A stretch of 64,000 nt of DNA from an uncultured Clostridia bacterium (GCA_963559365.1 CAUWKC010000003.1:2769-66768); one strand, 5' to 3'. Shown: positions 3,078 to 56,043, counted from the stretch's first letter. The notes: generated from the sequence alone by a model not told the origin. Numbers and translations: made by a program.

Positions 3078-4283
3078 TTAATCATCTCCTAATAACCAAT
3101 CTATTAAATATTTAATCTTAATGCCATCTTCCGAAGTGTTATTATATAATTTATCCATTGTTAAAACTATTTTTTCGTAATTATCATTTATTTGTCTTAA
3201 AGAATTTAATTCACGTTGTTTTACATTTTCTTCTAGCATTGTATATGTCACTTGAAAATACTTTTTATCGTTTGACTTTGTTGCTATAAAATCAACTTCT
3301 AGTGTATCTGTTTTTCCTATTGTAACATCATATCCTCTTCGCAACAATTCAAAATAAACTATATTTTCTATAATATGACCAAAATCTGAATTTCTAAAAC
3401 CTAATGTTACATTTCTTATGCCCGTATCTACTATATAATATTTTTCTAATGTTTTTAATAATTCCTTTCCCTTAATATCATATCTTGGAGCTTTATATAT
3501 AATATATGCATTTTCAAGCATTTGTAAATAATTGAGAACTGTGTTGTGTGTTATTTTTGTACCTTGACTTGTTAAATAATCTGCAATTTTTTTAGAAGAT
3601 ATTTGACTTCCAATATTGCTCATTAAAAATTTTAAGATTTTTTCTAATAAACTTCCATCTACAAGTTTGTTTCGCTCAACAACATCTTTCATAAACACTG
3701 TATTATATATTCCTTTTATAACATTTTCATACAAGTCTGCCTCATTTTTTATTGTTATAATTCCTGGCATTCCTCCAAATTTTACATATTCAATAAATTT
3801 ATCTTCAATACTTATATTGTCCTCAAGAACTGTAAAATCTAAAAATTCCTTGAATGACAATGGCAATACTTTTATTTCAATATATCTGCCTGTAAGATAT
3901 GTTGATAATTCTGATGATAACAAATAAGCATTTGAACCTGTTATATAAATATCACTATCAATGTCTATTAATAATGCATTTACAACTTTTTCCCATCCTG
4001 TTATTCTTTGAACTTCATCAAGCAATATATAATTTTTTTGCTTTTGCTTAGTTCTTTCTTTTATCCAATCATGCATCTCTTTGTAATTTTTTATATCATC
4101 AAATTCAAATGATTCAAAATTCATATATATAATATTTGCTTTTTTATTTTCTTTTAATATTTCATCTTTGAATATTTTTAATAAGCTAGATTTTCCACAT
4201 CTTCTAATACCTGTAATAACTTTTATAAATTCTGTATCTTTATAAGCTAATAATTTGTTAATATATAATTCTCTATTTATCAT
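3078..4283 (-). CDS. AAA+ ATPase of the AAA_14/DUF4143 type
   Basis: ORF 3078..4310. Walker A ITGIRRCGKSSL, Walker B ILLDEVQ, and C-terminal architecture typical of DUF4143 ATPases. The likely start is the ATG at 4283 (MINRELYINKL) after GAGGTGA; the listed upstream GTG lies inside the promoter. Confidence 0.7.
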   Translation of the reverse strand: MINRELYINKLLAYKDTEFIKVITGIRRCGKSSLLKIFKDEILKENKKANIIYMNFESFEFDDIKNYKEMHDWIKERTKQKQKNYILLDEVQRITGWEKVVNALLIDIDSDIYITGSNAYLLSSELSTYLTGRYIEIKVLPLSFKEFLDFTVLEDNISIEDKFIEYVKFGGMPGIITIKNEADLYENVIKGIYNTVFMKDVVERNKLVDGSLLEKILKFLMSNIGSQISSKKIADYLTSQGTKITHNTVLNYLQMLENAYIIYKAPRYDIKGKELLKTLEKYYIVDTGIRNVTLGFRNSDFGHIIENIVYFELLRRGYDVTIGKTDTLEVDFIATKSNDKKYFQVTYTMLEENVKQRELNSLRQINDNYEKIVLTMDKLYNNTSEDGIKIKYLIDWLLGDD

Positions 4284-4301
4284 AAATTTCACCTCATTAT
4301 A

Positions 4302-4330
4302 ATTATACACTTCTAGTTTTTTATTGTCAA
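4302..4330 (-). promoter_or_regulatory. Sigma-A-type promoter for the ATPase gene (TTGACA-17 nt-TATAAT)
   Basis: The minus strand reads TTGACA (4330-4325), a 17 nt spacer, then TATAAT (4307-4302), about 18 nt upstream of the ATG at 4283. Confidence 0.55.
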
Positions 4331-4405: not shown

Positions 4406-5966
4406 TTACTCTAAATTTTGGGGTAACTGATTTAGTATTTTAAAATTAAAAATAATATCAACTTGTTTATCTTGATGCACTTCTATTCGATTAACAAGAA
4501 CTTTCATTATTTCTGGTGTTGGTTTTTCTAATTTCAAAAAATCATTTATCAATTTTTTAATGTTTTCTATATCATCATCTGAATTATTTTCCTGTTCATT
4601 TTTTAACCCAATATATTCTTCTTCTTTTTGTTTTATCTCACCTTTTAGTTTATTAAATATTCTTTCATACATTTCTTCACTAATTTTTTCATTTAATTTA
4701 TCAACATACATTTTATCAATATTTTTATTTATTAGTTTTATTTGTGTTTCTATTTTCTCTAACATTTTTACATAATCATGCTTTGATATACTGTTTTTTA
4801 TATTTAACTCTATTTTCTTAGTATCAATTTGTAGAAATAATTCTTTTATGTACTCTAATACTATTCTTTCTAATGTTTCATAATTAAATCCATGTGATGT
4901 GCAAAGTCCTAATTTTGAGTTTCTACGGTAATTATTGCATATCATATCTAATCTTCCATTTTTTCTTGTTCTTACACCCATTTTGTGCTTACATTCATAA
5001 CATACTAGCAAACCATCTAACAAAAAATGATGTTTCTTTTCACTTCTATTATAATTTTGAACTATTACCATTTTTTGTACCGTATCAAAAATTTTTTTAT
5101 CTATAATTGGTTCATGTGTATTTTCTACAATATTCCATTGCTCTTTTGGATTTGGTCTTATTTTCCTATTTTTATAATTTATTCTGCTTCTTTTATTTTG
5201 TACTGTAACTCCAATATATATTTCGTTTTTTAAAATATTTTTTACTGTTTTATTTTCCCAAAATGTTGCTTTATTGTATCTAATCTGACTTGCTGTAGGG
5301 ATATGTTTGTTATTTAAATAGTCTCTTATTTCACTAATTGACTTTCCGTGAAATTGCCATACTAAAAATTTTTCTTATTATTTCCGCTTCTGCCTTACAG
5401 ATAATTAATTTATTTTTATTATTTGGATCTTTAGTGTATCCAAGTGCTATTTTACCACCTACCCATTTTCCTTGTTTTTGCATAGTATGTAGAGCTGTCC
5501 TAATCTTTTTCGATAAATCTTTAGAATACATATCATTTAATATAGATTTAAAAGGTGCAATATCATTATTACCATTAGATGTTTCAAAAGTGTCTATACC
5601 ATCTGCTAGAGACACATATCTAACATTATTTTCAGGAAACCATTTTTCTATATATTCCCCTGTTTCTATGTAATCACGACCTAAACGAGATAAGTCTTTT
5701 GTTACAACCATATTAACTTTTCCTGAATTGATATCTCTAATCATTTGTTGAAAAGCTGGTCTGTTAAAGTTTGTTCCTGTGTAACCTTGGTCAATATAAA
5801 TATCTATAAGTTCATATTCCCATCCTAATTTCTGTACATATTCTGTTAATAATGTTCTTTGATTTTTTATGCTTTCACTTTCATCATAACCTCTATCTAC
5901 ATCTTCTTTTGATAACCTTATATAAATTGCTACATTGTATATTGTTTTTTCTATTTGTTCAAGCAT
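4406..5966 (-). CDS. Large serine recombinase (resolvase catalytic domain, recombinase domain, zinc ribbon/coiled coil; ~519 aa); needs a +1 shift at CGGA 5345-5348
   Basis: ORF 5334..5999 carries VAIYIRLSKED..SIKNQR..VVTKDLSRLGRD (serine recombinase N-domain). ORF 4406..5071 carries LLDGLLVCYECKHKM..CNNYRR (zinc ribbon) and a coiled coil. My translation of 5072-5345 bridges them (GKSISEIRDYLNNKHIPTASQ...THEPIIDKKIFDTVQKM) once one nt is skipped. RBS GGGAGG precedes the ATG at 5966. Length is 3n+1. Confidence 0.8.
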
Positions 5967-6443
5967 TGCTCCTCCCTTCCTATGCTTGATAAAAAACAAT
6001 TTGAATTCAGCTTAAATTATAACCTATCTTTTAGAGAATTCAAATGCTCAAATGATAAAAATTTTTTGTTATCTTTTCACTAATATATCAATTAGTAGAC
6101 GTTCTATTAAGCTTTCTAATTCTTCACCCTTTTCATCAAAATACACATTAATTCTAAATGATTCGCACATAGTTACCTCCTGCTCATTTTAATTTGTTTA
6201 TTCAATTTATATGTTTTAAAAAATTTATTATTCACATATAAATTGTTGATATGAAGGGTTATATTTTGAAGGATAAACACTATATTTTCATTTCTGCTTT
6301 ACTAATTTTTACTAGTTAGTAAAACTGTCAAAATATAAATATTTTTTCTATTGTTTGAAAATAATTCTTATTTTTTTAGAAAAATCCCATAGCCACATTG
6401 TAGCTACAGGATTGAAAGTTTTTGACAGACTAGTTATTATATA

Positions 6444-29335: not shown

Positions 29336-29471
29336 AAAAATGGTTGATATTTCATCTCTCTATGGAAAGACTCCACATAAAGATTTCTACTTATTGCTGC
29401 TTCCTTCCGGACCTGACAAGATTCATAGGTCTTTATTGGATTCTCTCCATACAAAGATGAAACATCAACCA
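29336..29471 (-). ncRNA. ffs: Signal recognition particle RNA (small, single long hairpin form)
   Basis: The minus strand contains GUCAGGUCCGGAAGGAAGCAGC (the conserved SRP domain IV motif). The 5' AUGGUUGAUGUUUCAUCUUUGUAUGGAGAG pairs with the 3' CUUUCCAUAGAGAGAUGAAAUAUCAACCAU, followed by UUUUU. The position directly upstream of dnaX matches Bacillus/Clostridium synteny. Confidence 0.8.
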
Positions 29472-30774: not shown

Positions 30775-30850
30775 TGGTGTGCCTAGAGGGAATTGAACCC
30801 TCATCTACCGCTTAGGAGGCGGTTACTCTATCCGTTTAAGCTATAGGCAC
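30775..30850 (-). tRNA. tRNA-Arg (anticodon CCU), CCA encoded
   Basis: Hand-folded cloverleaf. Acceptor stem GTGCCTA/TAGGCAC, T arm GAGGG-TTCAATT-CCCTC, anticodon stem ACCGC/GCGGT with loop CU-CCU-AA, and 3' ACCA. Confidence 0.85.
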
Positions 30851-49399: not shown

Positions 49400-49438
49400 A
49401 AGCTCCTAGTTCTTTTTTTATTTTAAATTATTTATTTA

Positions 49439-50725
49439 CTATGGTTTTAGTGTCGTAATTGGCACAACATATACACCATCTGGTCTTTTGTAGGCTGCAT
49501 TTGAAAGTCCACATATTACGCAAAGAACTGATGGCGCTTTCCCTCCTTCTTTTTCTATTTCTTCTTTTAACTTTAATAAATTTCTCGCTGCTTCATCAAT
49601 TTTATTCGCCCCAAGTTTTATTTCAAATACACACCATTCTCCATTTTCTAATTCTATAACACAATCCACCTCTCTGTTTTGATAATCCTGATAATGATAA
49701 CATTTAGCATTAAAACTGTCAGCATATATTTTCAAATCTCTTTCTACCATTGCTTCAAATAAAAATCCAAATGTATTTAAATCATTAATTAATTTTTCTT
49801 CTTCCCTTATATTTAATAAAGAACATGCTATTGATGGATCAGCAAAATGTCTCTTTTCTGATTGTTTTACCCTTATAGAAGAACGTATATTAGTTGAAAA
49901 TGGTTCATCATTATCTAGCAAATACAATTTATCTAATGCATTTAAATACGAAGCTATTGTATCTATATCTATATCTTCATTATCAACATCGCTTATATCC
50001 TTTTTTAATGTCATATTAGATACTGTTGTACTTTCATTTCTCGCCAATGATTTTAATAATAATTTTACCTTATGTTTATCTCTATTTACTCCATCTAGTC
50101 TAATTAAATCATCATCAATTATTAACTTTATATATTCTTCTATAGCTTCACTAGAATCTTTAGGAGAATATTCTAAATTTCCAGGCCACCCTCCTCGAAT
50201 AATTAACCCCGCAAGATGTTTTAAATCCACTTCTCCTGTTAATTTTTGTTTTAATTTATTATTACATAATTCTTGAAGTGATACATCTCCTGTTGAATCT
50301 CCCGATTCAAACAAGCTCATGGTTCTTAAATATATTTTTCCATATCTTCCTGCTCCACTATGTGATATTCCTTTTCTATTAGGTGTAGAAGATCCTGTTA
50401 AAATATATTGTCCTTTTAATCCTGTTTTATCAACATCTGCTCTAATTTCATCCCATAAGTTTGTTGCTTCTTGCCATTCATCAATTAACTTTGGTTTCTT
50501 TCCCTCTAAAATTAATGATGGAGATATTTTAGCAAGTTCGACATTATTTGATGATTCTCCTGTTTTTTTATGTAAAAGTACTTCACTATTAGAATGATAT
50601 CTTCCTGCCCATGTTTTACCACAATATTTCGGACCTTCTATACAAATAGCACCAAATAGTTTTAAATAATGCTCTATCTTATCGTCAACAATTCTTTTTT
50701 TATAATTTTTTATTTCCATAATCAA
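49439..50725 (-). CDS. AAA+ ATPase of the DUF4143 type (second copy in window)
   Basis: Walker A IEGPKYCGKTW, Walker B-like LIDEWQ, and C-terminal restriction-endonuclease-like end (DCVIE..CVFEIKLG). Confidence 0.7.
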   Translation of the reverse strand: MIMEIKNYKKRIVDDKIEHYLKLFGAICIEGPKYCGKTWAGRYHSNSEVLLHKKTGESSNNVELAKISPSLILEGKKPKLIDEWQEATNLWDEIRADVDKTGLKGQYILTGSSTPNRKGISHSGAGRYGKIYLRTMSLFESGDSTGDVSLQELCNNKLKQKLTGEVDLKHLAGLIIRGGWPGNLEYSPKDSSEAIEEYIKLIIDDDLIRLDGVNRDKHKVKLLLKSLARNESTTVSNMTLKKDISDVDNEDIDIDTIASYLNALDKLYLLDNDEPFSTNIRSSIRVKQSEKRHFADPSIACSLLNIREEEKLINDLNTFGFLFEAMVERDLKIYADSFNAKCYHYQDYQNREVDCVIELENGEWCVFEIKLGANKIDEAARNLLKLKEEIEKEGGKAPSVLCVICGLSNAAYKRPDGVYVVPITTLKP

Positions 50726-50759
50726 CTAATCTCCTTTTATAATTAGATATATCAATATT

Positions 50760-50823
50760 ATTTTATTCCATTCGGTGATTTTTGTCAATCTTATTCCGTG
50801 ATATTTTATGTTTTTATTCCGTG
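50760..50823 (-). promoter_or_regulatory. Promoter (TTGACA-17-TAAAAT) with CACGGAATAA direct repeats upstream
   Basis: Minus strand: TTGACA 50788-50783 and TAAAAT 50765-50760. Exact 10-mers ttattccgtg lie at 50791-50800 and 50814-50823, plus a degenerate copy at 50763-50777. Confidence 0.45.
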
Positions 50824-50877
50824 TTTTTTATTTTGACTTACGATGTTTTATAAGCTTTTTTTACTTTTTAACTATAA

Positions 50878-50906
50878 TAAAAAAGGGATACTTTTATCCC
50901 TTTTTT
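50878..50906. terminator. Hairpin terminator after the cohesin-like gene
   Basis: AAAAGGGATA-cttt-TATCCCTTTT with flanking T/A runs. Confidence 0.6.
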
Positions 50907-50907
50907 A

Positions 50908-51600
50908 TTATTCTGATTTTTCTTCTTCTTGTTTATCATTCTCTACTTTTATTCCTTTTACTTCTTCGTATAATATATTTTTTACTTCTTCTTTTTCTCT
51001 ATGTTGAATATAATAAAATGCGATAAGTAAAATTATAATAATTGTTACAATTCCAATGATAAGAGAAATAATCATATTTCTTTTAAACATCCATTGATTA
51101 TCTAGTAAAACATCTGCCATTTCTTCTTTTTTGTTTTTGACATCAATTTTTATGTTTGTATCTTCATTTTCAATTGTGTTTTCTCCATCAGATGCCTCAA
51201 AATTCAATAAACTAATTTCTGTTTGTCCTGGTTTTGCATCATCTTTAATTTTAAAAGATAAAATCATAACTTTCTGATTTTCTTTTGTTGGTTGCATAGT
51301 TGTTGTTGTTGTTTGAATCAAATCTTCTACCATTATAGGAGTTGTCCAATTAGAACCATTTAGAATTATTGGCTCTTCTAATATTGTTTCATCATAAGAT
51401 AATACTGTACTTAATGCTACAATCCCATGTTCCATATTAATATTTTCTACTATAACTGGTATTTGAATAGTTTCACCTGTTACATATTTTTCTTTTTCTA
51501 TTTCCATTTTTATATCATATTCACTTGTTGCACCATAAGAAATTCCTACCATCAAAAGAAATATAATACAAGTTAATACAAAAATTTTTGTTTTTTTCAT
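50908..51600 (-). CDS. Cohesin-domain protein with signal peptide and C-terminal transmembrane anchor
   Basis: IKMEIEKEKYVTGETIQIPVIVENINMEHGIVALSTVLSYDETILE follows the cohesin pattern G(D/E)T(V/I)xIPV...GI...(V/L)xYD..(V/I)LE. A later KPGQTEISLLNF strand and C-terminal IISLIIGIVTIIIILLIAFYYI are present. Confidence 0.55.
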   Translation of the reverse strand: MKKTKIFVLTCIIFLLMVGISYGATSEYDIKMEIEKEKYVTGETIQIPVIVENINMEHGIVALSTVLSYDETILEEPIILNGSNWTTPIMVEDLIQTTTTTMQPTKENQKVMILSFKIKDDAKPGQTEISLLNFEASDGENTIENEDTNIKIDVKNKKEEMADVLLDNQWMFKRNMIISLIIGIVTIIIILLIAFYYIQHREKEEVKNILYEEVKGIKVENDKQEEEKSE

Positions 51601-51618
51601 CTGTAAACTCCTTACTTA

Positions 51619-54447
51619 TTACCAATTTGTTTGAATAATCCAATCTGGATGATTCGTTTGTATTGTTTCACTCTTAGAAGCTGCCATATGTCTTTGTATT
51701 TTCAAAGCATCTGTTATGTCGATAATTCCATTTGCATTAATATCTCCCAACAAGAATTTTTCGTTTTCTAAAATCCAATCTTGGTGCTTAGTAGATATTT
51801 CTTCACTAGACATTACTGCCATATGTCTTAATATTAATAATAGGTCTGTTGTGTCTATATTTCCATCTGAATTTATATCACCAATTTTTAAATTTGATCC
51901 TGTTTCTATTTCTATTACTTCTATTGTACTATAAGCTTTTTTTCCATTTGCTGTTGTTGCTGTTATAACAACTGTTCCTTTTGCTTTTATTGTTACTTTT
52001 CCTGTTTCGTCAACTGTTGCTATATTTTCATCACTACTTTTATATGTAATTTTTGTATTTTTGTTACTATTAGATGGTATTATTGTTGTCTTTAATTGAA
52101 GTGTTTGTGTTTTACCTAGTACAACTTGTATATTTTTTATATTAGTTTCAATGCTTGTTGGTTCAATTTCATTTTTGTTAGAATTTGTAACAATTACTGT
52201 ACAAATTGCAGTTGTTCCATCTTTTGCTTTTGCAATAATTTGTGTTTCTCCTGTTGAAATAGCTACTACTTTTCCTGTTTCATCTACTGTTGCTATATTT
52301 TTGTCAGAGCTACTCCATGTTATTTCCATTTCTTTTGGTTCTACTGTTGCTATTAATTTTTCTTCTTTTGTTCCGTTTAAGTCTAATTCTAATCTTTCTT
52401 TATTTAATTTTACTTTTGTATTTCCATTTGTTGTATCTTTTACTGTTACTTTACAACTTGCTTGTGCTCCATCTTCTGCTTTTGCTATAATAGTAGTTTC
52501 TCCTATTGCAATTCCTGTTACTTTTCCTGTTTCATCTACTATTGCTATATTTTTATCTGCTGTTTCCCATGTTAATTTTTTATTTTCTGGTTTTACTGTT
52601 GCATTTATTTGAGCTGTTTTCATTCCATTTAAATCTAATGTTATTTCTTTTTTGTCAAATGTAATTTGTGTTAAACCACTATTAGCTTTTATAACATTTC
52701 CTGTTAATTCTTTTCCTTTTATTAATTGTGTTACATTTCCTATTTCATCATATATTTCTTTCATAGTAAATGCTTCTTCTGCATCTACTTTTAATTCTCC
52801 TCTGTCTTCATTTGTAATAGTATATTCATATATTAAACTATTGTCTGTATTATCATATGATTTATAAGTTATTTCTTTTTTATTTCCTTCTCCAAAGTAT
52901 ATTTGTAATATTGGAGCAGTTTCATCTATAATTGGTGTTTTATCTTTGGTTCCATAAATTTTTTCATTAAAAGAAACTTTGATTTCTATTTTATCTCCTG
53001 TCTTATATTCCCCTGCTTCTGAAATTGCTTCAATTTTTTGTACACTTGGTCCTAAATTGTCAGCTATTATTTCTTTGTTTTCTTCTAATTTTTCTATTTT
53101 TGTTAAATCTGCTTTAACTCCAGATTCATTGTAAACGGTTCCTATGAAATTATCACCTGAACCTATTTCTAATTTTCCAGTATCTTCTTTTTGTATTTTA
53201 TAAGAATAATTAATTGCTTTTCCATTTGCTGAATCAAAAGTAGTTAATTTATTTTGTCCTCCTACTCCAAATTTAATAAATAATTTTGGAGCTGTATTTT
53301 TATTAATCACAATTTTCTTTTCTGTTCCATAAATATTTTTGTCAAATTCTACTTTTATTTTTATTTCTTGACCTTCACGATAAGTTCCACTACTTGGAGA
53401 TGTTACACTAACTTTACTAATGCTTGGTGCTACTTTGTCTACTGGTTCTTCTGGTTTTTCTCCTTCACCTCCAGATGTGTTTCCTCCTCCAGAGCCTCCA
53501 CTTGAGCCTCCTCCTGATGTGTCTCCTCCTCCAGAGCCTCCTCCTGATGTGTCTCCTCCTTCAGAACCTCCGCCTGAGCCTCCTCCGTCTGGCTTTTGAT
53601 TTTCTTCTTTTGAGCTATTAACTATATCTTTTATTTCGTCTGATAATTCTTTTCCTCCTATATATCCGTCTAATATATTTTCACCTTTTGATTCCTTTAC
53701 AATTTTTTCTAACATAGATTTAAAAGCCATCTTACTTTCATTATCTTTAAAATTTCCATCTTCGCCTACAAAACTTGTGCCTAATATTTTTTCTGATACT
53801 TTTATCCAAAAATTAGTATAAGAATCAAAATTTCCATCTGGATACTGTGATTGAAAATTCTTACCATTGTCAGTCCAACTATCCAACTGTTTAATATATC
53901 TTTCATAATCTCTTAATGCAGCATCAAAATTTTCTTGTATACTTTTTCTTGCCTCAGCTTCTTTTTGTTCTGCTACATCTCCTACAAAGAATCCTACTTT
54001 TATAGGTTTAGATTCTACTGTTCTCCCCCTATATGTATAAAAGGCTTTTGCATAATATGCCGTTTGTCCTGGCACAATATCATCTGCTGCTTTATAAGTT
54101 ATAGATTCTAATTTTGGTTTTTCTCCTGGATCAACTACACCTTCGATTTGAAAAAACAATTTTCTTATTTCTTCTTCAGTATATTCCTTTATATTATTTC
54201 CAGGTAAAATAAAATAACCAAAACCAGATTGCATCAACGCAGTTTCAATTAATTGATTATTAATAAGTTCCTCTGTATTATCTCCATCAGCTAGCAATTC
54301 TTTTGTTTGTGTTCCACCTATTGAAGCCAATGTTTGAATTTTTTCATCAACATTAAAAATAGCAATGGCACAAGTAACAAAAACAATAATGACACCTGTT
54401 ATTGCTGATGTAATTAAAAATATTTTCTGAGATTTTTTCATAACCAT
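51619..54447 (-). CDS. Large surface protein (942 aa): N-terminal anchor/signal, Gly/Ser linker, two ~130-aa repeats, three Big_2 Ig-like domains, C-terminal type I dockerin
   Basis: Big_2-like repeats (..TWETADKNIAIVDETGKVTGIAIGETTIIAKA.. three times). Dockerin: two EF-hand-like segments, GDINSDGNIDTTDLLLILRHMA and GDINANGIIDITDALKIQRHMA, at about nt 51619-51905. Confidence 0.7.
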   Translation of the reverse strand: MVMKKSQKIFLITSAITGVIIVFVTCAIAIFNVDEKIQTLASIGGTQTKELLADGDNTEELINNQLIETALMQSGFGYFILPGNNIKEYTEEEIRKLFFQIEGVVDPGEKPKLESITYKAADDIVPGQTAYYAKAFYTYRGRTVESKPIKVGFFVGDVAEQKEAEARKSIQENFDAALRDYERYIKQLDSWTDNGKNFQSQYPDGNFDSYTNFWIKVSEKILGTSFVGEDGNFKDNESKMAFKSMLEKIVKESKGENILDGYIGGKELSDEIKDIVNSSKEENQKPDGGGSGGGSEGGDTSGGGSGGGDTSGGGSSGGSGGGNTSGGEGEKPEEPVDKVAPSISKVSVTSPSSGTYREGQEIKIKVEFDKNIYGTEKKIVINKNTAPKLFIKFGVGGQNKLTTFDSANGKAINYSYKIQKEDTGKLEIGSGDNFIGTVYNESGVKADLTKIEKLEENKEIIADNLGPSVQKIEAISEAGEYKTGDKIEIKVSFNEKIYGTKDKTPIIDETAPILQIYFGEGNKKEITYKSYDNTDNSLIYEYTITNEDRGELKVDAEEAFTMKEIYDEIGNVTQLIKGKELTGNVIKANSGLTQITFDKKEITLDLNGMKTAQINATVKPENKKLTWETADKNIAIVDETGKVTGIAIGETTIIAKAEDGAQASCKVTVKDTTNGNTKVKLNKERLELDLNGTKEEKLIATVEPKEMEITWSSSDKNIATVDETGKVVAISTGETQIIAKAKDGTTAICTVIVTNSNKNEIEPTSIETNIKNIQVVLGKTQTLQLKTTIIPSNSNKNTKITYKSSDENIATVDETGKVTIKAKGTVVITATTANGKKAYSTIEVIEIETGSNLKIGDINSDGNIDTTDLLLILRHMAVMSSEEISTKHQDWILENEKFLLGDINANGIIDITDALKIQRHMAASKSETIQTNHPDWIIQTNW
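53471..53572 (-). repeat. Tandem ~30 nt coding repeats encoding the GGSGGG(D/N)TSG linker
   Basis: cctgatgtgtctcctcctccagagcctcct (53513-53542) is repeated at 53543-53572 with 4 changes. A longer variant lies at 53471-53512. Confidence 0.7.
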
Positions 54448-54681
54448 ACACTCCTATTTCAATTATAGTCTTATAATTTATTATTACAATATTTTTCTTA
54501 ATTTGTAAAGTACTTATTAATCATGTTGCTTAAATACACTTGTAATTAGCTTACGGATATACATTAGCCATAAAATCTCTTTTTTTTATTAAATTTATAT
54601 TACATTTTTTAAAATATCCTAATTTTTTTGTAAAAATACTTTGATTACACATATCTCCGTAAGTTTTCCTTACTTTTTAAT

Positions 54682-54710
54682 AAAAATCCTAGAAATTCTA
54701 GGATTTTTAT
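54682..54710 (-). terminator. Rho-independent terminator after the 443-aa gene
   Basis: AAAAATCCTAGAA-t-TTCTAGGATTTTT followed (minus strand) by a T-rich tail. Confidence 0.6.
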
Positions 54711-54711
54711 A

Positions 54712-56043
54712 TTAATGTTTAAATAAATTCATAGACATAACAAAATTTTCTTCTTCTTTTAACTGCATAACAAAACTTCTATCAAAAGTAGGTTCTTCTT
54801 CATTTTCCATATTTATAAAAGTAACTTGTTGTGTATATACTTTTGCCTCTTCATTAAAATCTCCAAACTCTATTTTGTAATGAGCCGGAAAATATTGTTG
54901 CATATAAGAAGTAAAATCTTCTAATGACTCAAAATAATTATTTCTAAATGTTTCATCCAAAACTTGATAAGCTGCTTTATAATCACGACTATTTATCATT
55001 TGAATCCATATATCTATGTTAGTTGCAACTTTCTCTTGTTCGGATGACTTTTTATAAATTTGTTTAAATTCATCATCTTTTATTGTATATCTATCTAATT
55101 TTATTGTATATTCATGAATTGCTGTTTCTTTAAAAGTATATATATTATCAAATTGGTCTTTACAAGTATAAAGTTTGAAATCTTCTTTATTTTCTACTTG
55201 ATATCCTTTAATTTCAATTTTAGATAAGTCTTTTTTATAATTTTGTAGATATTGTTCAAAGTTTTCTTGATTTTCAAATCTTTTATTTCTATATTCCTCA
55301 TCTAATAATTCATAACTAATATTTGCATTTGATAATAATTTTTTCTTCATGTCATTAAAATATTCTACTGCCATTTTTTCTTCTGAAATACTAACAAATT
55401 TAAATTTATTGTATTCATTTTCTTCAATTGGCTCTGAAAATACAGTATCAAAATCTTCTTTTTTACTTTCATAAGAATAATTTTTTTGTTTCATATATTC
55501 TTCTGGAAAAATTGAAAATCTCATTTGAGAACTGTCTGTTCTTACCATAATTTGAAAATCTTTTTGTGATACTTTCATAGTTCCATATACTAAAAACAAG
55601 TTAGAAGAAGCACTTTTTTCAACAAAATACATGTCTTTAATTTCTATTACTTCATCTTCTGATATTTCATTATAAAGTTTTTCTATATCTTGCTCGTTAA
55701 TATCATATTCTTGTTTATATGTTTTATCTAAAACATCTATTACTGCTTTTGTAGTAAGATTTTTTATTTCATCTTCTGTTTTTTCATCTTTTAAATCATT
55801 CAAATATGTTATATAACGCTCAATTAAAGTTTTAACTGTATAATATTTATTTCTATTTTTTACTTTTTCAATATTTTCTTCTACTTCATAGCTTTCTTGC
55901 ATTTCAAATTCTGTTGCTTTTTCTTCTTCACTTGTTCCTTTTTTATTAGAAAAATGTATCCATACCACAATAATAATTATTAGAACAATTAAAATCGCTA
56001 TTATAATTGCTAGTTTTTTAATTTTAGCTAAATCTAATTTCAT
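54712..56043 (-). CDS. Hypothetical membrane-anchored protein (443 aa)
   Basis: N-terminal TM (LAIIIAILIVLIIIIVVWI) and an acidic, Tyr-rich extracellular part. No catalytic motif recognised. Confidence 0.55.
   Translation of the reverse strand: MKLDLAKIKKLAIIIAILIVLIIIIVVWIHFSNKKGTSEEEKATEFEMQESYEVEENIEKVKNRNKYYTVKTLIERYITYLNDLKDEKTEDEIKNLTTKAVIDVLDKTYKQEYDINEQDIEKLYNEISEDEVIEIKDMYFVEKSASSNLFLVYGTMKVSQKDFQIMVRTDSSQMRFSIFPEEYMKQKNYSYESKKEDFDTVFSEPIEENEYNKFKFVSISEEKMAVEYFNDMKKKLLSNANISYELLDEEYRNKRFENQENFEQYLQNYKKDLSKIEIKGYQVENKEDFKLYTCKDQFDNIYTFKETAIHEYTIKLDRYTIKDDEFKQIYKKSSEQEKVATNIDIWIQMINSRDYKAAYQVLDETFRNNYFESLEDFTSYMQQYFPAHYKIEFGDFNEEAKVYTQQVTFINMENEEEPTFDRSFVMQLKEEENFVMSMNLFKH

Follow-up and report, generated by a model that had tools for sequence, protein, structure and literature searches.

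Cohesin-dockerin pairs are known outside cellulosomes, and their roles there are mostly unknown. In Clostridium perfringens, cohesin and dockerin modules sit inside secreted enzymes and link the enzymes together, and to our knowledge many non-cellulosomal dockerins have no known partner. In Ruminococcus flavefaciens, the CttA and ScaE genes are neighbours in the sca cluster. CttA, a non-enzymatic adhesin, carries binding modules at its N-terminus and a dockerin at its C-terminus; ScaE, a small sortase-anchored protein with a single cohesin, keeps it on the cell and is itself anchored via its own C-terminus (PMC4266597). Here we describe two adjacent genes, for a 942-amino-acid dockerin protein and a 230-amino-acid membrane cohesin, in a 64,000-nucleotide (nt) stretch of DNA from an uncultured Clostridia bacterium (GCA_963559365.1 CAUWKC010000003.1:2769-66768; hereafter referred to as the window). 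The pair lies directly after genes of a type IV secretion system (T4SS) and is probably a variant of cohesin-dockerin surface anchoring of the CttA-ScaE kind that displays a T4SS-associated adhesin.

TraN alleles are recipient-specificity variants in Gram-negative conjugation. PilV shufflon adhesins are described as another case of variation of the contact-making part in Gram-negative conjugation (PMC9045228). No sorting signal is present in the Gram-positive adhesin TIEpLS20 of plasmid pLS20, and how it attaches is described as unknown (PMC8092201). Full-text literature searches returned no paper relevantly linking a cohesin or dockerin to conjugation or to a T4SS.

A reading made from the DNA alone (the sequence-only reading) had placed two minus-strand open reading frames here, and both were recovered at exactly those positions. 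It had described the shorter product as cohesin-like with a C-terminal transmembrane anchor and the longer one as ending in a two-segment dockerin after three Big_2 domains, and had named the Cohesin, Dockerin_1 and Big_2 profiles as one check. All three profiles matched, Big_2 three times, and the predicted anchor was found as a transmembrane helix; profile and structure searches alike supported a cohesin fold. The Pfam Cohesin profile (PF00963) matched residues 31-143 of the 230-amino-acid protein with 31.9 bits (cut-off 24.1), orthologues reached 40-41 bits, and a profile built from the protein family reached C. thermocellum cohesins in the PDB (E 0.003). An AlphaFold2 model calculated from 14 family members (mean predicted local distance difference test, pLDDT, 77.9; at least 90 at 90 residues) consists of a beta-sandwich (residues 29-155) followed by a single long helix (157-209). 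Foldseek comparison of this model with the PDB revealed cohesins as 22 of the 22 best matches. Three non-cellulosomal cohesins from glycoside hydrolases of C. perfringens, 2jh2, 2w1n and 2vo8, headed the list, with E-values of 4e-8 to 2e-7 and target TM-scores of 0.71-0.80 (0.44 for 2w1n, a 228-residue double module); cohesins of C. acetobutylicum, R. flavefaciens and C. thermocellum came next. Model and matches together identify the nine-stranded beta-sandwich (jelly-roll) that characterizes cohesins. With 36 clusters in 5.8 billion, the family of this protein is a small one. The only match in a genome collection was an R. flavefaciens cohesin, 27% identical, and a JGI metagenome scan with the cohesin alignment gave no match. 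A family-specific hidden Markov model search found no second cohesin in the window.

The way in which this cohesin is attached differs from that of ScaE/SdbA-type anchoring scaffoldins, which carry a wall-anchoring module. Neither Gram_pos_anchor nor SLH was detected with Pfam, and the protein is without LPXTG; a transmembrane helix and a cytoplasmic tail stand in their place. The helix and the tail motif YYIQHREK..ILYEEVxGI are invariant in family members that are ~55% identical overall, a conservation exceeding that of the extracellular cohesin domain and, therefore, hinting at an intracellular partner of the predicted tail. The motif matched no known motif, and it is missing in the more distant members P0049 and P0047 (P-numbers denote proteins, and L-numbers loci, carrying relatives of the pair).

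The dockerin of the 942-amino-acid protein matched Pfam Dockerin_1 (PF00404) with 38.2 bits (cut-off 22.9), and every orthologue tested was likewise above the cut-off (30.6-42.4 bits). The Ca-binding loops are DINSDGNIDTTD (residues 857-868) and DINANGIIDITD (residues 902-913). In each segment an EF-hand-like loop of 12 residues leads into a helix (..LRHMA), and behind the helix comes an extension (S.E.I...H.DW) that is conserved in both segments; the result is the two duplicated loop-plus-helix segments of a type I dockerin, with a spacing of ~44 residues vs the usual ~30. Conservation is highest at the Ca-ligand positions of loop 1 and in the two recognition helices: loop 1 positions D1/N3/D5/D9/D12 and both helices are invariant across lineages, while positions 3 and 5 of loop 2 vary in some. 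A profile of the region matched C. thermocellum type I dockerins in the PDB; in the three alignments shown, both segments of the C. thermocellum dockerin align to the first segment of the one described here. A loop-pattern search revealed no other dockerin in the window. In the orthologue at L018 6393-9983 the dockerin is not terminal, and an acidic linker and an extra ~100-residue domain lie behind it.

The AlphaFold2 model of the 942-amino-acid protein is confident only at residues 343-845, where it shows five tandem beta-sandwich domains. Three are the Big_2 domains; the other two are repeats without a Pfam family, all-beta with pLDDT 75-90, and their copy number varies, with four in P0025. 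Foldseek comparison of the whole model returned S-layer, cadherin, RTX-adhesin and invasin rods, and the stalk, modelled with confidence, forms a rod of tandem beta-sandwiches akin to those of adhesins and S-layers. A Gly/Ser-rich linker joins it to the N-terminal ectodomain. Polymer-adhesin and thioester domains and LPXTG were not found in this protein with Pfam and NCBIfam. Since the features by which they are recognized are absent, the pair belongs neither to the sortase- or SLH-anchored class of anchoring scaffoldins nor to the PrgB or TIE adhesin families. The partner of an anchoring scaffoldin carries a terminal dockerin and is displayed on the cell; here the adjacent gene encodes a terminal dockerin, and display on the cell is predicted.

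The N-terminal ectodomain is an orphan, with 8 matches in 1.84 billion representatives, and searches of Pfam, NCBIfam and PHROGs for it gave nothing beyond Big_2. Comparison of closely related loci revealed that this domain is hypervariable. Some contigs encode cohesin, hydrolase and 443-amino-acid proteins that are 98-100% identical to those of the window, yet the overall identity of their dockerin protein is no higher than 74-78%. All divergence is confined to residues ~46-300, where alleles share 18-38% identity, compared to 82-90% in residues 1-45 and 94-100% in residues 300-942. At the DNA level, identity is 98-99% either side of 53546-54296 and undetectable within, and the 3' boundary of the cassette (53545/53547) falls inside the Gly/Ser linker. 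In two metagenome runs coverage drops out only over the cassette, and one metagenome contig links 53545 straight to 54296. At least three unrelated alleles thus occupy this position in loci otherwise 98-100% identical. No shufflon recombinase was seen for this 750-bp variation. Cassette replacement is expected of an exposed specificity tip and, therefore, favours a topology with the C-terminal dockerin at the base and the hypervariable N-terminal domain distal.

The two genes are closely linked. Both are read in one frame, with two stop codons and four sense codons between them, and an 18-20-nt spacing with an AAGGAG-like site was also found in L002, L016, L018 and L027. A putative promoter lies ~40 nt 5' of the dockerin gene start codon. 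An alignment of six diverged leaders (~265 nt) shows TTTACA without variation and, at a conserved spacing, a TG-extended -10-like box with the consensus TGGTAAAAT. A GC-rich hairpin with a T-run is present in five diverged loci at the position of the terminator that precedes the pair. The pair's own promoter, the flanking terminators and the 18-nt spacer mark the dockerin and cohesin genes, as judged from these DNA signals, as a separate two-gene transcription unit directly after the T4SS genes. The leader matched no Rfam riboswitch family. Two further short motifs of the leader (54520-54660, minus strand) recur in five of the six diverged leaders, and the window keeps them in part: TTGTCATA.AAATTTAATAT, which reads TGTAATATAAATTTAATAA in the window, and ATCCCTAA, which reads ATCCGTAA. 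They could be operator sites.

Wherever the context suffices, gene order is kept: hydrolase, ~450-residue transmembrane protein, Big_2/dockerin protein of ~900-1,200 residues and cohesin. Six lineages have both the pair and this synteny (the window group, L001, L002-5, L016/17, L018/19 and L027), and their cohesin proteins are only 43-55% identical. Homologs of the dockerin protein were found only in T4SS-hydrolase loci. Two loci without a T4SS, each with a distant relative of the cohesin protein, show a similar arrangement. In L020 a dockerin protein with NPCBM/discoidin domains lies directly upstream of cohesin P0052, which ends in LPQTG, a ScaE-type sortase anchor, and in L021 a GH42-like dockerin protein lies directly upstream of a single anchored cohesin. 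A dockerin cargo gene followed by a gene for a single anchored cohesin is, therefore, a recurrent two-gene design.

Taken together, these features suggest the following mechanism. The 230-amino-acid protein would be exported and held in the membrane by its C-terminal helix, showing one cohesin just outside the membrane and the conserved acidic tail inside the cell. The 942-amino-acid protein would be exported too, with its N-terminal signal probably removed, and its Ca-dependent C-terminal dockerin would plug into the cohesin, as synteny and knowledge of the families lead us to expect. Five tandem beta-sandwich domains and the Gly/Ser linker would form a stalk of ~30 nm, lifting the ectodomain through and beyond the wall. 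The ectodomain would act as a ligand-specific tip, swapped as a 750-bp cassette between otherwise identical loci, and would probably set which cell surface the bacterium sticks to in T4SS-mediated contact, that is, in mating-pair formation or stabilization. To this reading as a whole, a snap-fit (non-covalent) membrane anchoring of a variable-tipped, T4SS-associated adhesin, we assign about an even chance.

Several observations weigh against it, and they bear on its topology, on binding and on the T4SS link in turn. RNA-seq support for the pair consists of one 140-nt fragment, and AlphaFold2 confidence is low for the dockerin and for the tip domain (tip pLDDT 25-60). The cohesin stands only ~20 residues from the membrane, beneath the wall. 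The N-terminal segment of the 942-amino-acid protein, as read from its sequence, is either a signal peptide with a possible AIA|IF cleavage site or a signal-anchor; if its 23-residue hydrophobic segment is an uncleaved anchor, the variable domain would be membrane-proximal and the dockerin distal. The cohesin contact would then be one of recognition, not anchoring, either in cis, closing a loop, or between carriers of the locus, as in surface or entry exclusion or kin recognition, and the variable domain would define specificity groups. A long K-rich N-region before the hydrophobic segment in the orthologues, more typical of signal-anchors, speaks for such an arrangement, as do the conservation of that segment between alleles and the L014 lineage, which keeps an intact dockerin protein where no cohesin was seen. 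Allelic cassettes in otherwise identical transfer loci are, moreover, also typical of exclusion systems, allelic specificity being known for YddJ/ConG of ICEBs1 and Eex/TraG of SXT. However, small residues at -3/-1 close the hydrophobic segment in every orthologue inspected, so cleavage is possible, and for a membrane-proximal domain under the wall there is no obvious cause for hypervariability while the T4SS neighbours stay 98-100% identical. Another cell would, in addition, hardly reach a cohesin tethered so close to the membrane. L027 encodes a protein that bears this dockerin type at its N-terminus, has a clean cleavable signal and lacks any other anchor. We consider the N-anchored arrangement rather improbable. 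The sequence-only reading had proposed that the cohesin tethers a long Ig-like adhesin stalk, a proposal that is supported in part: the hypervariable ectodomain fits a distal, ligand-specific tip on a C-terminal anchor, as the adhesin model requires, and the proposal is weakened by the N-terminal segment, which may itself be an anchor, and by the lineages in which the two genes are unpaired.

These unpaired lineages also bear on whether the two modules bind each other. L014/L015 keep an intact dockerin protein of 1,355 residues, with no cohesin gene seen within 24 kb; in L028 the cohesin gene stands at the corresponding chromosomal junction, and the dockerin gene or T4SS upstream of it is replaced by a gene for a polytopic membrane protein. 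Such dockerin-only and cohesin-only loci, together with the many non-cellulosomal dockerins that lack a known partner, would fit an accidental adjacency in which dockerin or cohesin has another partner or the dockerin a structural Ca-binding role. Yet the 18-20-nt linkage is conserved across six lineages, the same gene order recurs with unrelated cargo, and the window offers neither module an alternative partner. The dockerin helices and a stretch of the cohesin surface are, in addition, strongly conserved. Absence of binding thus appears highly unlikely to us, and cohesin-dockerin anchoring remains the preferred explanation of the linkage.

The T4SS itself is real. The window and L010, a contig identical to the window over their shared part that shows the operon beyond the window end, together encode the VirB4, VirB6-like, VirB1-like hydrolase and VirB3/PrgI-like components expected of a monoderm conjugative T4SS. 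L010 contributes the full 782-amino-acid VirB6-like protein, the VirB4 ATPase (DUF87/AAA_10), a PrgI/VirB3-like protein and three TrbC/VirB2-like pilin genes. The VirB4 protein shares 42% identity with its counterparts on large plasmids from C. beijerinckii and C. botulinum. The pilin genes are consecutive and lead the T4SS operon (L010 1672-2985; T4SS_pilin/TrbC above cut-off); a recent preprint reports that many Gram-positive bacteria cannot conjugate without VirB2-like pili (bioRxiv 10.64898/2025.12.18.695078).

DNA transfer by this system is a separate matter. No relaxase was found among the window open reading frames scanned (a part of the total) or in L010, and no coupling protein within 10 kb upstream of the hydrolase in L010; this upstream search was bounded by sequence reaching ~2.7 kb further upstream. 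In the C. beijerinckii plasmid a coupling protein with a TraM-recognition domain is encoded upstream of the T4SS genes. The only VirD4-type gene of the window (14672-16628, minus strand) is frameshifted and lies 35 kb from the T4SS operon. The intact coupling protein and the relaxase of a conjugative T4SS were accordingly not seen in the sequence covered. In at least five related lineages the T4SS island, moreover, stands at one and the same chromosomal site, beside a gene for a BcrAD/BadFG-type activase. Two of them were compared in full, and there the flanking proteins are 68-90% identical vs only 32-59% for T4SS proteins. Without a relaxase, with a broken coupling-protein gene and with a constant chromosomal site, conjugative DNA transfer by this T4SS is putative at most. 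The sequence-only reading had placed the pair in a conjugation module, which is verified only in part, by the mating-pair-formation genes directly upstream.

The pair's own promoter, and the terminator that separates it from the T4SS genes, also limit what can be said of its coupling to the T4SS, which is by position only; Gram-positive adhesins of conjugation are encoded within the conjugative T4SS cluster, and the pair follows the T4SS genes immediately but is transcribed as a unit of its own. It could, then, be a general surface-display module of this bacterial lineage, a cohesin socket for one or several Big_2/dockerin proteins, that happens to stand beside a T4SS island at a variable junction and serves adhesion to host, mucus, fibre or biofilm, not mating. 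Besides this separate transcription, L028 points that way, with a cohesin at the same junction and no T4SS or dockerin genes upstream, as does L027, with a second dockerin protein outside the T4SS operon. Cohesin relatives serve glycan-binding or glycosidase cargo in non-T4SS loci, and the window sequence turns up mainly in bovine and other gut metagenomes. The Clostridium plasmids whose T4SSs are nearest to that of the window were searched and have no cohesin and no dockerin. What argues for the T4SS link is that the genes for the T4SS hydrolase and the ~450-residue protein precede the dockerin gene, with the same spacing, in all six diverged lineages, and that homologs of the dockerin protein turned up only in such loci. 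We regard a function unrelated to the T4SS as unlikely, though it deserves serious consideration.

If the pair does serve the T4SS, a more far-reaching version of the adhesin reading can be formulated. The second dockerin protein of L027 (12445-15249) has a clean signal peptide, then the same dockerin subtype, stalk domains and a C-terminal domain without Pfam match; it has no other anchor and is encoded near the single cohesin of its locus, which fits a shared socket. The membrane cohesin might, therefore, be a dedicated T4SS socket for exchangeable stalked adhesins with the dockerin at either terminus. Their cassette-swapped tips would choose the cells to be contacted, and the invariant tail (ILYEEVxGI) would link the adhesin to the secretion machinery or signal contact to it. 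We advance this version tentatively and rate it as doubtful. If true, a dedicated socket would give Gram-positive transfer systems a sortase-independent, modular way to attach and diversify mating adhesins. By eye, an S-A-G-C-A-H motif in the C-terminal domain of the L027 protein recalls L,D-transpeptidases.

Table 1. Features of the cohesin-dockerin locus and its surroundings, in window coordinates
Feature	Coordinates	Strand	Evidence
Hairpin terminator that closes the unit and overlaps the stop codon of the cohesin gene	50874-50911	(-)	Scan and sequence
Gene for the 230-amino-acid membrane cohesin	50908-51600	(-)	Open reading frame, Pfam, AlphaFold2, Foldseek
Acidic cytoplasmic tail, 32 residues (199-230), with motif YYIQHREK..ILYEEVxGI (predicted)	50911-51006	(-)	Alignment
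Transmembrane helix, residues 176-198	51007-51075	(-)	Cohesin protein alignment
Cohesin domain, residues ~26-155	51136-51525	(-)	Pfam and AlphaFold2 model
Signal peptide, residues 1-23, ...GISYG|A (predicted)	51532-51600	(-)	Cohesin protein sequence
Spacer, 18 nt; its ribosome-binding site (AAGGAG) lies 8 nt from the ATG of the cohesin gene	51601-51618	(-)	Sequence
Gene for the 942-amino-acid stalked surface protein	51619-54447	(-)	Open reading frame, Pfam, homologs, AlphaFold2
C-terminal dockerin, residues ~853-942, two duplicated segments	51622-51891	(-)	Pfam Dockerin_1
Three Big_2 Ig-like domains, residues ~592-845	51913-52674	(-)	Pfam Big_2 104.8 bits, three stretches, and model
Two ~120-residue beta-sandwich repeats without Pfam family, residues ~338-590	52678-53436	(-)	AlphaFold2
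Gly/Ser-rich flexible linker, residues ~285-335 (~50 residues)	53443-53595	(-)	Sequence, pLDDT ~30
Hypervariable cassette, N-terminal ectodomain, residues ~51-301, 750 bp	53546-54296	(-)	Protein and DNA comparison
N-terminus of the dockerin protein, residues 1-45: K-rich stretch and 23-residue hydrophobic segment	54313-54447	(-)	Sequence
Putative sigma-70-type promoter of the pair: -35 TTTACA, 18-nt spacer, TG-extended -10 (TGTAATAAT)	54480-54509	(-)	Scan
Hairpin terminator just 3' of the 443-amino-acid gene, splitting the T4SS core operon from the pair	54680-54710	(-)	Terminator scan
443-amino-acid protein with N-terminal transmembrane anchor, always between hydrolase and dockerin genes	54712-56043	(-)	Pfam, synteny
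1,684-amino-acid peptidoglycan hydrolase (lysozyme-like, M15, Amidase_3, CHAP/NlpC), VirB1-type wall-opening enzyme	56067-61121	(-)	Pfam, NCBIfam
309/312-amino-acid protein and C-terminal 625 residues of the 782-amino-acid VirB6-like polytopic protein	61140-64000	(-)	Library scans, L010

Comparison of the window with L006, L007, L014, L016-L018, L027 and L028 revealed that the region 49400-50900, which separates the cohesin gene from the convergent activase gene, is a junction of variable content; the activase is ~90% identical across the lineages compared. The junction holds a DUF4143 ATPase gene (49439-50725) in the window and nothing in L007 and L014. Genes for a DnaJ-like protein and a patatin occupy it in L016/L017, L027 and L028, a patatin gene alone in L018, and the extra dockerin protein gene in L027. 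A second DUF4143/AAA_14 ATPase gene of the same paralogue type (3078-4310, minus strand) lies beside an apparently split large serine recombinase (4406-5999, minus strand; Resolvase 5334-5999, Zn_ribbon_recom 4406-5071). These two are possible remnants of another mobile element.

The VirD4/TraG-type gene matched T4SS-DNA_transf with 217.8 bits across its frameshift. An open reading frame of 163 codons (16137-16628) covers the two N-terminal transmembrane helices of the VirD4-type protein, and the Walker A motif GSGSGKS lies in another frame behind stops; SbcCD-like, DnaJ-like, Ddl and Mur-ligase genes, all housekeeping, are its neighbours. Two housekeeping RNAs, a small signal recognition particle RNA (29357-29452, minus strand) and tRNA-Arg(CCT) (30775-30850, minus strand), indicate that the window is mostly chromosomal. 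The source is a low-GC (~27%) spore-former, the window encoding YpeB and a GerM-like protein. PLSDB gave no match when searched with the region DNA, the cohesin protein and the dockerin module. A phage origin was considered and rejected, since the PHROG matches reflect only Big_2 and lysin domains.

Comparison with described systems identifies CttA-ScaE as the closest functional analogue, with its N-terminal tip, C-terminal dockerin and single cohesin anchored by its own C-terminus; L020 P0052 is exactly of the ScaE type. Unlike ScaE, the cohesin described here sits on a transmembrane helix with a conserved tail, without LPXTG or SLH, and adds to the known sortase- and SLH-anchored types an anchor that could serve surface-display engineering. 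Its partner differs from CttA in that no X-module precedes the dockerin and both dockerin segments are lengthened by a conserved extension. At the tip of the cargo an orphan hypervariable domain takes the place of a carbohydrate-binding module, and the surroundings are those of a T4SS operon instead of a cellulosome. The non-cellulosomal modules in glycoside hydrolases and toxins of C. perfringens, cohesin and dockerin alike, are similar in coming from low-GC clostridia and in making contacts outside fibre degradation; in contrast to them, the cohesin here is borne by a dedicated membrane anchor, and its partner is a stalked, non-enzymatic protein.

With PrgB of pCF10 and with TIEpLS20 the 942-amino-acid protein shares the design of a large exported multi-domain surface protein encoded with T4SS genes, with an N-terminal domain of putative adhesive role and an Ig-like stalk. 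PrgB is LPXTG-anchored, and the pair is without LPXTG; like TIEpLS20, the 942-amino-acid protein has no sorting signal. Unlike both, it would be attached via a dedicated cohesin partner, and its role in mating is putative. How Gram-positive transfer systems hold adhesins without a sortase signal is an explicitly open question, raised for TIEpLS20 (PMC8092201), and the locus offers a concrete case of it. Which partners gut clostridia make cell contact with could be explained by the natural alleles of the tip cassette. In this respect the locus resembles TraN and PilV, in which allelic or cassette variation affects the contact-making part amid conserved transfer genes, although the proteins are unrelated, the envelope is of another type and the variation here takes the form of replacement of a 750-bp cassette.

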